A DNA stretch of 64,000 nt from Dictyostelium discoideum. Its lineage: Eukaryota. The position numbers and the translations under genes are program-made. Location of the stretch: NCBI GenBank assembly GCA_000004695.1, contig CM000153.2:1472001-1536000 (forward strand), in the 5' to 3' direction. Under the pieces are notes generated by a model. It did not search any database and was not told the DNA's origin. It was given only the letters and a program-made list of their open reading frames with translations. This document shows, in pieces, positions 4,858-48,159 of this stretch (positions within the stretch are counted from its first letter, which is position 1; every line of letters starts with the position of its first letter).

Positions 4858-4894
<37 letters not shown>

Positions 4895-5125
4895 TATGAT
4901 GTTTAAACTGGGTCTGTGAACAATTAAGATTTGATAAACACCATTAGAAAAAAATTTCAATTTCAATAGTGTTTATCAAATCTTGATTGTTCACAGACTC
5001 AGTTTAAACATTATTGAAATTGAAATTTTTTGCAAACAAACTTGGTTTAAATATTACACTTAAAACAAAAAAAAAATAAAATAAAATGTCCTTTGACTGG
5101 TTCTGGTTTATAAACCAAACTAAAA
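4826..5125. repeat. Nested inverted-repeat / foldback (MITE-like) element
   Basis: Inner arms of 42 bp at 4900-4941 and 4969-5010 are reverse complements with about 2 mismatches. The 27-bp spacer (4942-4968) is itself repeated inverted at 5011-5033. The outer arms share an inverted 17-mer, tttataaaccagaacca at 4837-4853 and tggttctggtttataaa at 5098-5114. A T32 run lies between the outer and inner arms. Confidence 0.6.
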
Positions 5126-28254: not shown

Positions 28255-30171
28255 CTTTTTAATGGCATTAAAGATGAAATTGTATCTTTCCAATCATTAC
28301 AATCATTTGAAGAAGTTGAAAAAGTAATAATTTCAACAGGAGAGATTGAATTTGTTTTGATGTATAATTTTATATCGGAATAACCTGGATGATTTGGATT
28401 ATCAGTGACGATATCAATTTGGAAGCAGGTATCTAAGTTTATGTATTGTGAAGTTGGAATTTGTTTAGTTTCATCGAAATATTCCCTCATTTCACCATCG
28501 GTTGAGATTTCATAATATCTCTTTTCTAAAGTTTCTTGATTTGAACTACTAATTGATTTTCTCTTTAACCAACCTTCTTTGACAATCTTTGTAATTAAAC
28601 ATGGATTTGAATTTGATGATGATGATCTTGATCTTGTAATTGGTACACCTGTACTTAATTTTGAATTTCCATTATTATTGTTGTTGTTGTTGTTGCAATT
28701 GTTATTACTACTATTACTACTATTGCTACAATTACTATTACAACTATTATTTAAACTTCCACTACCACCACCACCACCACTACTATTACTACTACAACTT
28801 AATGGTGATGTTGGTATATTACTACTACTATTATTATTACATGTATTGTTTGTTGAAGATGAACCTGATGAATTTATTGATGAAGTCGATGAAGTAATTG
28901 ATGTGGTTGATGAAGTAATTGATGTAGTTGTTGTAGTAGTTGTTGATGCCATTGATGTTGGGAATGATATACTTCTATTTCTTTTAGATTTATTATTAAA
29001 ATTTCTAAAATAAAAATAAAAATAATAATTAATAATAATTAATAATTAATAATATATAAAATATGGTAATGGTAATAATTACCTTTCGTCATCAATTTCT
29101 AAATTTGACATTAATTTAGTATTTTCTGAATTAACTTTTGAAAGTTTTTCTTGTTCTCTAATAATCTTTTGACCTAATACAAAGTTTTCAGCTTTTAATG
29201 CATCAATATCTTCTTTTTTATTACCATTAGATTCAAGTTCTTTGATTTTATCTCTTAATACAATTACCTCATCTTGTAATTTCAAAAGTGATCTATGATC
29301 ATTAATTTCATTTTCTAATCTTTTTTCTAATGCTCTAAAATAATTATAAATTAGAATTAGAAATAAAAAAAAATTAAAAAAAATTAAAAAAAGTAAGAAA
29401 AGAGGGGTATTAATAAAAGAGGTATTTTTTTTTTTTTTTTTTTTTTCTTTCTTTTTTTCTTTTTTTTTTAAAATAAATATAATTACTTTTTATCTTTCAT
29501 TACATCTTGAATTTGTTTTTGTAATTTATTTACAATGAATTCTTCTTCTTGTTCTAATTGATTTTCAAGATCGACTTTTTCTTTCATAATCTATAAAATC
29601 AAGTATAACAAAATTTATATATATATAAAAAAAAAAAAATTAATAAATAAAACATAAAAAAAAAAAAATATGTAAATAAAATAAAAAAAGTGAAAAACAT
29701 ACAGTTAACATTTTCTTTTGAAGAGTATTTGTAAGGTATTCTTCCTCTTGTTCCACTTTTAAGGCAAGTTCTTCCTTTTCTTTTTTCAATTGATTCAAAT
29801 ATTTCATAAATTTATTAGTAATATACTCTTCTTCATTCTCTGTTACTATTTGCTAAATAAAGGTAATTTGTAAAAATGATTAATAAAAAAAAAAAAAATA
29901 ATAATAATAATAAAAACAAAAAATATAATATAATAATAAAAAAAGGAAAAAAAGTAATATGTTAATATAAAAAAAAAAAAAAAGTGTAAAATATATATTT
30001 TAATTAAAAAAGAAAATAAAATAAAATTATAATTACAATTCTTGCATGTGAGTCTCTTAATTGTTTTAATTCTTCTACTAATGTTCTATTTCTATTTTTT
30101 TCTGTCAATAACTGTCTTTGAAGATCTTCAATTATTTCTTTTGAAGATTTCTCTGCTGCATTACTGTCCAT
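28251..30171 (-). CDS. Coiled-coil protein with Ser/Thr/Asn-rich linker and C-terminal PH-like domain; exons (minus) 30171..30037, 29852..29703, 29590..29487, 29334..29083, 29004..28251
   Basis: The five exons join in frame. Exon 1 is MDSNAAEKSSKEIIEDLQRQLLTEKNRNRTLVEELKQLRDSHARI|GTAATT. Exon 2 is QIVTENEEEYITNKFMKYLNQLKKEKEELALKVEQEEEYLTNTLQKKMLT|GTATGT. Exon 3 is IMKEKVDLENQLEQEEEFIVNKLQKQIQDVMKDK(K)|GTAATT. Exon 4 is ALEKRLENEINDHRSLLKLQDEVIVLRDKIKELESNG...LEIDDE(R)|GTAATT. Exon 5 is NFNNKSKRNRSISFPTSMASTTTT...KIVKEGWLKRKSISSSNQETLEKRYYEISTDGEMREYFDE.., a PH-like GWLKRK motif. All phases were checked. The product is about 464 aa. Confidence 0.65.
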
Positions 30172-30456: not shown

Positions 30457-31026
30457 TTATTTTTTATTTTTTTTTTTTTTTTGATTTTTTAATTTTAAAA
30501 GAAAATAATTATAATAATATTTGCTTATTTTAACGAAATTTCATAAGTTTTTTTTGAATTTGAGTAATAATAGCATTTGTTTCACCTAAAGCAATAACGA
30601 GATTTTCTTTTTTTTTTTTTTTTTTTTTATTTTAAACCCTAAAAAAAATAAAATTAAAGAATTATAATATTTTTTTAAAAATTATTAATAAAATTAATTT
30701 TTGATCGCTCTGAGATTTAATTGAGTGTTGTATAACAAAATTTGATTTAAATTAAATTTTGTTATACATTTCTAAACAATTTTTTTTAAATTTTATTTTA
30801 TTATTTTTTTTTATTTATTTTTTTTATTTTTTTATTTTTTTATTTATTTTTTTATTTTTTTTATTTTTTTTGTTTTTTTTTTTTTTTATTATTATTATTT
30901 ATTATTTTTTGGTTGTAAGAATCTATAAGAAGATTCTCGAAATTGTTATTAATCTAAATTAATTAATAATTAATATTTCATGAAAAAAAAAAAAAAAAAT
31001 AGGGTGGTCTTGATTATTTTTTTTTT

Positions 31027-31092
31027 TTTTTGGCGCGAGGAGCACAATATATTTATAAAAAAATATGTGCGTTAAAATTATCGCGCCAAAAA
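31027..31092. promoter_or_regulatory. Pair of inverted E2F-like GC boxes (TTTTGGCGCGAGG ... ATCGCGCCAAAA) about 470 bp upstream of the RNR large-subunit ATG
   Basis: These are the only GC-rich hexamers (GGCGCG at 31032-37, CGCGCC at 31082-87) in more than 1 kb of roughly 90% AT intergenic DNA. They are arranged as an inverted repeat 44 bp apart and match the E2F consensus TTTSSCGC. Confidence 0.4.
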
Positions 31093-31560
31093 AAAAAAAT
31101 AAAAAAATAAAAAAAATTAAAAAAAAAAAAAAAAAATAATAAAAAAAAAAAAAAAAAATTTATTTTTAATTTTCCTCAAACATCAATAATATATAGCAAT
31201 AAACTAAATAAATAAATAAAAAAAAAAACAACAATCACTTTTTTTTTTTTGTTTTTTTTATTAAATATTTGTTTATTTCTTATAATAATCTCTCCTTTTT
31301 TTTTTTTTTTTTTCCCTTTCCTCATTGTTTTTTTAAATCCCTAAAAAAGTTAAATTAATAAAAAAAAACAAAAAAAATAAAAAAAAAAAAAAAAAAAAAA
31401 GTAATTTTCCACTAAAAACGTTGGTTACAACCAACACTCCCCCCTTAACAACAAATTTTTATTATTTTTTTTATTTTACTAACATTGTTATTAAAATTTA
31501 AAATTTTTATATTAGATGATAAGTAATAGTATTAATGTAACTCCAAATAAAGAGTCAAAG

Positions 31561-34100
31561 ATGTATGTTGTAAAAAGAGATGGTACAAAAGAAAATGTAA
31601 AATTAACATTAAATAAAACTATTTATAAATAAAAAAAATAAAAAAATAAACAATAAAACTAATAATAAAAAAAAAAAAAAAATAAAGGTATCATTTGATA
31701 AAATTACATCAAGAATTTCATTTTTATGTGAAATGGAACCAAAATTAAATTCAGATATAGTTGATCCAATTGAAGTAGCACAAAAAGTAGTTAGTGGAGT
31801 ATTTCCAGGTGTAAAGACTACAGAATTGGATAATTTGGCAGCCGAGACAGCAGCATATATGTCAACACGTCATCCAGATTATGGTATTTTGGCAGCACGT
31901 ATTAGTGTATCGAATCTTCATAAACAAACTTCAAAGAGTTTTGTAGAGACAGTTAAGAAACAATATGAATTCATTAATCCAAAGAGCAATTTATTGGCAC
32001 CATTGGTCAGCAAGGAGCTCTATGAAATCGTAATGAAACATGGTGAGAGATTGGAGAGTGTCATTGATTATTATCGTGATTTCGATTACGATTTCTTTGG
32101 ATTCAAAACATTGGAACGTTCCTATCTTCATCGTATCAATGGTAAAATTGTCGAGCGTCCACAACACATGTTGATGCGTGTCTCCATTGGTATCCATGGC
32201 GAAGACCTCGAATCTGCCATCAACACCTACAAACGTTTGTCTGAGAAATTGTTCACTCATGCCACACCAACTCTATTCAACGCAGGTACACCATCACCAC
32301 AAATGTCATCTTGTTTCTTGGTTCAAATGAAGGAGGATTCAATCGATGGTATTTATGACACTTTGAAACAATGTGCACTCATTTCAAAGAGTGCCGGTGG
32401 TATTGGTATTGCAGTTCATAAGATTCGTGCTGCTCAAAGTTATATTCGTGGTACCAATGGTACAAGCAATGGTTTGGTGCCAATGCTTCGTGTTTTCAAT
32501 GATACTGCTCGTTACGTCGATCAAGGTGGTGGCAAGAGAAAGGGTGCCTTTGCCGTTTACTTGGAACCATGGCACGCTGATGTCTTTGAATTTATTGATC
32601 TAAAGAAAAACACTGGTAAGGAAGAGATGAGAGCTAGAGATCTATTCTATGCTCTTTGGGTTAGTGATATTTTTATGGAACGTGTCGAACAAAATGGCGA
32701 TTGGGCCCTCTTTTGTCCAAATGAAGCACCAGGTCTTGCTGAAACTCACTCAGAGGAACATCGTGCTCTCTATTTGAAATACGAAGCAACACCTGACCTC
32801 CCAAGACGTGTCATTAAAGCTCAAGAACTTTGGTTCGCCATTATGGAGTCTCAAGTTGAAACTGGTACTCCATTCATTTTGTACAAGGATGCCTGTAATG
32901 CTAAATCCAATCAAAAGAATTTAGGTACCATTAGTAGTAGTAATCTTTGTACCGAGATCATTCAATACACATCACCAGATGAAATCGCCGTTTGTAATCT
33001 TGCCTCTATAGCACTTCCAAAGTTTGTTCGTCAAAAAGTAGGCTCAACCGATCCAAAAGAAAAAGAGTTTGACCATCAATTCCTATTTGAAATCACAAAG
33101 TTAATAACCGTCAATCTTAACGTTATCATCGATCGTAACTATTATCCAGTGGCTGAGGCTAAAACTTCAAATCTTAGACATCGTCCAATTGGTATTGGTA
33201 TTCAAGGTTTGGCCGATGTTTTCATTAAAATGCGTATGCCTTTCGATAGTGTTGCCGCCGCTAAATTAAATGTTGAAATCGCCGAAACCATTTACTTTGC
33301 CGCTTTGACTGCCTCTCATGAATTGGCGATCCGTGATGGTACCTATGAATCTTTCAAAGGTTCACCAGCTTCCAAAGGTATCCTCCAATTTGATATGTGG
33401 AATGTTACACCAAGTTCTCGTTGGAATTGGGCAGAGCTAAAGGATAACATTGTCAATAAGGGTGGTTTACGTAATTCACTCCTCATTGCACCAATGCCAA
33501 CCGCTTCAACAAGTCAAATCCTTGGTAACAATGAATGCTTTGAACCTTACACTTCCAACATTTACAGTCGTCGTGTTTTAGCAGGTGAATTCACAATTGT
33601 CAACAAACAATTACTCGAAGATCTCATGGAATTGGGCATTTGGTCACCAGAGATGAAGAATCAAATCGTTGCTGCACGTGGTTCCATTCAATCCATCGGT
33701 GGCATCCCTGATGATTTGAAAGAACTCTATAAAACAGTTTGGGAAATCCGTCAAAGAACTCTCATCGATATGGCTGCTGATCGTGGTGCTTTCATCGATC
33801 AAAGTCAAAGTTTCAATGTTTTCATTGCTGAACCAACCTTTGCTAAACTCACCTCAATGCATTTCTACTCATGGAAGAAAGGTTTAAAGACTGGTATGTA
33901 CTATCTTCGTACTCGTCCTGCCGCTGATGCAATTCAATTCACTGTTGATCCAATCGTATCTCAAACTCCAAAACCAGTTGAAAATAATATAAACTCAACT
34001 ACACCACTTAAAACTCCAACTAAAACTCCAAACTCTTCAAATCGTATCTCTACTAGTCCAACTAATAATTTAACAAGTCCAATTCGTTTTAATATAACCC

Positions 34101-34138
<38 letters not shown>

Positions 34139-34219
34139 AATAATAATGAAGATGATTTGGCTAATTATGATGGTATGACTTGTCGTCGTGAAGAAGGTTG
34201 TTTAGTTTGTGGTAGTTAA
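31561..34219 (+). CDS. rnrA: Ribonucleoside-diphosphate reductase large subunit (RNR R1); exons 31561..31596, 31688..34219
   Basis: Exon 1 is [12 protein letters not shown]|GTAAAA. Exon 2 is [15 protein letters not shown]..., near-collinear with human RRM1 ([27 protein letters not shown]...). It has an ATP-cone, the catalytic core ([41 protein letters not shown]) and the C-terminal ..CLVCGS tail. The upstream ATG at 31516 is out of frame with stops. The symbol is a guess. Confidence 0.85.

Positions 34220-37860: not shown

Positions 37861-48159
<10,299 letters not shown>

Follow-up and report, generated by a model that had tools for sequence, protein, structure and literature searches.

The 64-kb window, by which we mean the whole stretch of Dictyostelium discoideum DNA analysed here, carries the gene rnrA on its plus strand (31516–34219), with a first coding exon at 31516–31596, an intron at 31597–31687 and a second exon at 31688–34219 that includes the stop codon. 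We confirm the original assignment of this gene to the large subunit of ribonucleotide reductase (RNR): the protein shares 95% sequence identity with a D. dimigraforme protein, the representative of the cluster (90% identity) to which D. discoideum RnrA belongs, and it contains the Pfam domains ATP-cone, Ribonuc_red_lgN and Ribonuc_red_lgC. The rnrA coding exon has 40% GC (32001–34000) compared with 15–30% elsewhere in the window, and the best matches of its product after Amoebozoa are RNRs from Bacteroidota (∼70% identity). Both features could reflect codon bias linked to high expression, an ancient transfer of the gene between eukaryotes and Bacteroidota, or a combination of the two. On the minus strand, a divergent gene encoding a DUF2046/PH coiled-coil protein starts with an ATG at 30171, and gene models of relatives place its start at the equivalent position. 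The intergenic region between the two genes is 1344 bp long and has a GC content of 12.8%, in a window whose overall GC content (∼20%) is that of a dictyostelid. No non-coding RNA or tRNA was detected in the window by Rfam or ARAGORN, no other replication genes were found within the 64 kb, and a six-frame search for RRxYD/NVLEG-type motifs located no e2f or DP gene there. Farther downstream, positions 37861–48159 on the minus strand form a single open reading frame of 3432 aa; the loci orthologous to it encode products of 3421–3746 aa with no Pfam hit on record.

Two short GC-rich boxes in inverted orientation are located 426–488 bp upstream of the rnrA ATG (31516). The 11-mer TTTTGGCGCGA is found at 31028–31038 on the plus strand, and an exact inverted copy occupies 31081–31091 on the minus strand. 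Both boxes contain the E2F consensus TTTGGCGC, an exact match to TTTSSCGC, at 31029–31036 (+) and at 31083–31090 (−), where the plus strand reads GCGCCAAA. The original prediction had the sequences of the boxes right but misplaced three of their four ends by a single base: the left box TTTTGGCGCGAGG spans 31028–31040 (not 31027–31040), and the right box ATCGCGCCAAAA spans 31080–31091 (not 31079–31092). The spacer between the 11-mers (31039–31080) is 42 bp long and AT-rich (21% GC). The spacer harbors an inner palindrome formed by GCACAATAT..ATATGTGC, which is specific to D. discoideum, and a conserved CGTTAAA box (31070–31076). A tract of 15 T (31017–31031) adjoins the left site and supplies the TTT of the consensus; a T-run is also present at the equivalent place in the D. 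discoideum-complex loci L012, L011 and L008. Its mirror image, a tract of 12 A (31088–31099), adjoins the right site and runs on as an A-rich stretch to ∼31160. As poly(dA:dT), the T15 tract probably disfavors nucleosomes.

The boxes are rare. Exact copies of TTTTGGCGCGA are limited to these two in the 64-kb window, and allowing one mismatch yields three matches compared with 0.12 expected. TTTSSCGC itself occurs three times in the window (0.68 expected), in the two boxes and at 33296 within the rnrA coding sequence. In other species, the same codons again contain this third match, which is thus present for coding reasons. The boxes had been described as the only GC hexamers of the intergenic region, which is nearly correct: a CCCCCC run is also present at 31439–31444, yet SGCGCS or SCGCGS hexamers are confined to the two boxes across the entire window. 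When we simulated the intergenic region (1344 bp, 12.8% GC) with a first-order Markov model, two or more TTTSSCGC matches appeared in 0.09% of the simulations (P = 0.0009).

Between the boxes and the coding sequence, we locate a putative core promoter at 31280–31313 (+), consisting of a TATA-like element TTATAATAAT (31280–31289) followed by a run of 18 T (31296–31313) that is conserved in D. citrinum and D. dimigraforme. Dictyostelium promoters are typically laid out as a TATA box plus oligo(dT). From this arrangement we conjecture that transcription starts at ∼31320–31345, which would place the E2F pair ∼230–315 bp upstream of the start. The rnrA leader probably contains an intron (31401–31515), as judged from a GT at 31401–31402 within the 5′ splice site GTAATT, a TACTAAC branch site at 31477–31483 and an AG at 31514–31515 that immediately precedes the ATG. 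D. citrinum and D. dimigraforme share the 5′ splice block AAAAAGTAATTTTCCACTAAAAACGTTG of this intron unchanged, and D. purpureum has a comparable GTAAAAT...TTTTATAG arrangement ending 7 nt before the rnrA ATG. Several other candidate features of the intergenic region were discarded. An ORF-like stretch at 30520–30600, considered as an additional gene, and an AT-rich hairpin in the middle of the region (GTGTTGTATAACAAAATTT...AAATTTTGTTATACA, 30725–30770) show no conservation in D. citrinum or D. dimigraforme. The DUSE-like CCCTAAAAAA words at 30637 and 31341 are not conserved either, and a Class-I-RNA-like motif following a GTTGGTTACAACCAAC hairpin (31420) is only partly conserved and lies inside the probable leader intron.

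We compared the rnrA locus with those of 11 other genomes, using the conserved KRDG codon of the ATP-cone as an anchor. In the D. discoideum complex (a second D. discoideum isolate, D. cf. discoideum, D. citrinum and D. dimigraforme), identity to the window over the intergenic alignment columns is 85, 77, 69 and 63%, respectively. Both sites are present in all four relatives, with core-to-core distances of 51, 51, 49 and 45 bp compared with 51 bp in the window, and the boxes are close to being the sole G+C clusters of these intergenic regions, the remaining ones being short C-runs. The left site is kept as TTTGGCG[C/G] in the four other loci, and the GCGCCAA of the right site is invariant in 5/5 sequences. 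Bases outside the 8-mer vary among the five close relatives while the consensus is retained: the left box reads GGCGCGAGG, GGCGCTAGGG, GGCGGGGCGGG, GGCGCGAGG and GGCGCCAAA, and the right box TCGCGCC, TTGCGCC, TCGCGCC, ATGCGCC and TTGCGCC. The last of the left boxes, from D. dimigraforme, is a self-palindromic double site, so that this species has the palindrome TTTGGCGCCAAA plus a second site. Selection has maintained the consensus and the inverted arrangement ∼45–51 bp apart, and not the 11-bp palindrome or the potential to form a hairpin.

Consensus sites recur in more distant dictyostelids at a similar place. Measured from the KRDG codon, they are found between −509 and −545 in the window, D. 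citrinum, D. dimigraforme, P. violaceum, C. fasciculata and the b paralogue of A. subglobosum. P. violaceum has GGCGCGCCAAAAAAA at −535 in the palindromic form GGCGCGCCAAAA, C. fasciculata has TTTGGCGCCAATTT at −516 in the palindromic form TTTGGCGCCAA, and A. subglobosum paralogue b has TTTTGGCGC at −535; in H. album the site GGCGCCAAG is farther upstream, at −800. The expectation per dictyostelid rnrA promoter is 0.01–0.07 consensus sites per kb. Over the ∼10-kb dictyostelid loci, strict-consensus matches are nearly confined to the region upstream of rnrA and to the one coding-constrained match inside the gene. In Balamuthia, an amoebozoan outside the dictyostelids, TTTCCCGCC is located ∼210 bp upstream of the ATG, a match that is not significant by itself in DNA of 42% GC. 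The gene upstream of rnrA varies by lineage (a DUF2046/PH gene, a Rad51 paralogue, EF-Tu or a methyltransferase) while the site keeps a similar distance from rnrA, which indicates that the sites travel with rnrA. The gene model of C. fasciculata rnrA (L006 4001–8060, 942 aa) begins ∼1.4 kb upstream of the ATP-cone start (∼5380) and probably takes in spurious 5′ exons; the palindromic E2F site of this species (4885–4896) falls within the model.

No consensus site is present upstream of rnrA in D. purpureum, T. lacteum and A. subglobosum paralogue a, and the element must therefore be dispensable or replaceable in these three promoters. D. purpureum retains only AAGCGCT at the equivalent position, and the T. 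lacteum locus has no strict E2F site anywhere, including upstream of spc25. When T. lacteum Spc25, the product of an RblA-repressed gene, was used as a query, it returned only itself and no D. discoideum homologue. We note that in D. purpureum (L002 2181–3067 (−)) and T. lacteum (L004 2663–3532 (−)) a Rad51-family paralogue is divergent from rnrA, so that in these two species, both without the E2F consensus, a DNA-repair gene shares the rnrA intergenic region.

The regulation of rnrA has been characterized at the level of expression. Strasser et al. (2012) sequenced mRNA from a disruptant of rblA, the retinoblastoma orthologue, and from cold-synchronised cells (PMC3386910). In their Table S2, rnrA (DDB_G0284071) is repressed by RblA 5.14-fold during growth and 13.04-fold during development, and its profile is scored as ‘max late G2’ and ‘max mid devel’, that of cell-cycle genes (PMC3386910). 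Dictyostelium has a single activator e2f gene (DDB_G0284129), a DP gene (DDB_G0276799) and rblA (DDB_G0290551); the authors proposed that RblA represses S-phase genes directly, together with E2F/DP, and described Dictyostelium cell-cycle control as plant-like in several respects (PMC3386910). Theirs is an expression-level study, with neither a per-promoter map of E2F sites nor an E2F-site column in Table S2 (PMC3386910). In the literature that we searched, no description of E2F sites in the rnrA promoter was found. E2F sites are a very well known class of element and rnrA was already known to be Rb-regulated; the phylogenetically footprinted sites at rnrA are new.

The consensus match, its rarity and its rnrA-tied conservation are established by the comparisons above, and an rnrA mRNA that depends on RblA and peaks in late G2 is established by the expression data (PMC3386910). 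We consider it quite probable that the boxes are sites for an E2F/DP heterodimer, which would time rnrA to the cell cycle through RblA. The original reading of the boxes as E2F sites is well supported, given the exact consensus, its conservation in most dictyostelid genomes examined and the Rb dependence of rnrA (PMC3386910). We infer that E2F/DP occupies the boxes and that both of them are used, perhaps cooperatively. During most of G2 and in differentiating cells, RblA would be bound to E2F at the boxes and would hold rnrA transcription down. In late G2, in an organism without G1, and again in the mid-developmental round of replication, RblA would be inactivated, and E2F/DP could then drive a burst of rnrA transcription just before M/S. 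The flanking poly(dT) and poly(dA) tracts may keep the sites accessible throughout. Two observations speak against this reading: the consensus is missing from three dictyostelid rnrA promoters, and the distance of 426–488 bp to the ATG exceeds the start-proximal position typical of animals and plants, unless the leader is long. A damage-responsive role of the boxes, also suggested originally, may find indirect support in the UV-inducibility of Dictyostelium rnrB (PMC3424546) and in the induction of tobacco R1a by UV-C through E2F sites (PMC3161108).

Other explanations for the boxes can be weighed against the same data. The GC core could be read by a different factor, for example a regulator of RNR in response to DNA damage or replication stress, with the likeness to E2F sites being incidental or partial. 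Many eukaryotes induce their RNR genes upon damage, Dictyostelium rnrB responds to UV and DNA damage as an immediate-early gene (PMC3424546), and further conserved boxes, CGTTAAA and the HSE-like AGATTCTCGAA, adjoin the sites. However, the word that is deeply conserved among dictyostelids is specifically TTTGGCGC(C), complete with its T-tract and with the palindromic doubling that is typical of E2F sites. In addition, loss of RblA strongly de-represses rnrA, and the Strasser table gives rnrA a ‘max mid devel’ cell-cycle profile and not a ‘repair’ one (PMC3386910). The boxes (GGCGCGAGG and ATCGCGCC) also lack the cores of the fungal MCB (ACGCGT) and SCB (CRCGAAA) motifs of MBF/SBF. A different factor thus appears improbable to us. 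The sites might also serve the divergent DUF2046/PH neighbor, or both genes as a bidirectional element: the two genes have the intergenic region in common, the pair is symmetric and E2F sites work in either orientation. We regard this as very unlikely, as the neighbor's ATG is ∼860–920 bp away from the sites compared with 426–488 bp for that of rnrA, and as the sites remain with rnrA in other dictyostelids that have a different neighbor there. Moreover, genes with adjacent identifiers (DDB_G028405x–028409x) are not among the RblA-repressed rows listed in the available part of the table (PMC3386910).

The inverted repeat as such could be a DNA cruciform or an RNA hairpin that serves as a small RNA, a terminator or a structural element. 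Folding of the 81-nt window segment as single-stranded DNA gives an outer and an inner stem (−23.8 kcal/mol, z = −6.8), and a good fold is also obtained for the second D. discoideum isolate (z = −4.8). The z-scores over the five sequences of the complex are −6.8, −4.8, −0.8, −3.5 and −0.8, however, and D. cf. discoideum and D. dimigraforme (z = −0.8 in each) have lost the capacity to form the hairpin although both keep the E2F consensus. Arm changes among the relatives are non-compensatory (in L012, T.T replaces a G-C pair), only one site, lone or palindromic, occurs in more distant species, and Rfam places no RNA family in the window. A stem arises automatically from any two inverted TTTGGCGC sites with T and A tracts, and a functional hairpin seems to us extremely unlikely. 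Finally, short motifs do arise by chance, and three dictyostelid rnrA promoters are without the sites; to dismiss the boxes as GC-rich words devoid of function would nevertheless require a coincidence of P ∼0.001 in this intergenic region alone, together with a recurrence of the motif, similarly far from rnrA, in four or more independent lineages that all have the low expectation per kb given above. The probability of such an accident is close to negligible.

Two further conserved boxes are found in the vicinity of the predicted E2F sites. The CGTTAAA box (31070–31076) is 6 bp from the right site and unchanged across the five close relatives, whereas the spacer has otherwise diverged; read on the opposite strand, the box is TTTAACG and resembles a Myb core. 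The left site is preceded, at a distance of ∼90 bp, by an HSE-like word of three perfect units, aGAAgaTTCtcGAAa (30929–30941). All five D. discoideum-complex loci (the window, L008, L001, L011 and L012) have the core AGATTCTCGAA of this word unchanged, and the core also occurs ahead of rnrA in D. purpureum (L002:3682–3693), where the neighboring gene differs. The HSE-like pattern is not rare, with two matches in the window compared with 1.1 expected, and this box may be a second control element of rnrA, possibly for stress. As a more speculative and rather unlikely extension, the E2F pair, CGTTAAA and AGATTCTCGAA could form one composite module that is read by a DREAM-like RblA/E2F/Myb assembly and that also carries the stress or DNA-damage induction of RNR. 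If so, the near-constant distance of ∼450–490 bp to the coding start would represent a start-proximal position before a long, intron-containing leader, and the promoter would offer a handle on the late-G2 timing of S-phase genes in a cell cycle without G1.

Rb/E2F control of Dictyostelium S-phase genes is known from genetics and RNA-seq, and the literature searched ties no cis-element to it. As short and isolated sites in extremely AT-rich DNA, the rnrA boxes provide a clean entry point for studying binding by E2F, DP and RblA, and late-G2 timing without G1. If they are E2F sites as predicted, they would extend the link between E2F and RNR from animals and plants to Amoebozoa, and would support its ancient origin.

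Several well characterized systems resemble the rnrA promoter. Within Dictyostelium, rnrA is a listed member of the RblA regulon, repressed by RblA and with expression peaks in late G2 and mid-development, according to Table S2 (PMC3386910). Tobacco RNR2, RNR1a and RNR1b have E2F sites upstream or in the leader that confer S-phase-specific transcription (Chabouté et al. 2000, 2002; Lincker et al. 2004; as summarised in PMC3161108), and those of R1a also mediate induction by UV-C (PMC3161108). Tobacco and Dictyostelium thus share E2F-consensus sites upstream of an RNR gene. In tobacco, however, their function was established by mutagenesis and binding, whereas for Dictyostelium rnrA it is deduced, and the RNR1b site is in the 5′ leader; the Dictyostelium sites are 426–488 bp from the ATG. 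In the vertebrate R2 genes (RRM2 of mouse, human and zebrafish), an Rb-family/E2F site brings about periodicity mainly by repression outside S phase (PMC3161108). Such a repressive site parallels the behavior of rnrA, which is de-repressed when rblA is lost, but the R2 promoter has a single, start-proximal site with CCAAT boxes and belongs to the small subunit, whereas rnrA has two inverted, distal sites and encodes the large subunit. A CDE/CHR (DREAM) element was considered and set aside, as no CHR (TTYGAA) follows the boxes: neither TTTGAA nor TTCAAA occurs within 30990–31130; TTTGAA is found near the site in several distant orthologues, which is weak evidence in AT-rich DNA.

Inverted paired or overlapping E2F sites are a feature of the adenovirus E2 early promoter and of the DHFR and E2F1 promoters. 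The rnrA sites resemble these in being an inverted pair with T-tracts pointing outwards. At 51 bp core to core, the spacing in the window far exceeds that of the adenovirus E2 pair and of the overlapping cellular palindromes, and no factor conferring cooperativity is known. The rnrA promoters of D. dimigraforme, C. fasciculata and P. violaceum contain an overlapping palindrome of the form TTTGGCGCCAAA / GGCGCGCCAAAA, like that of the DHFR promoter.
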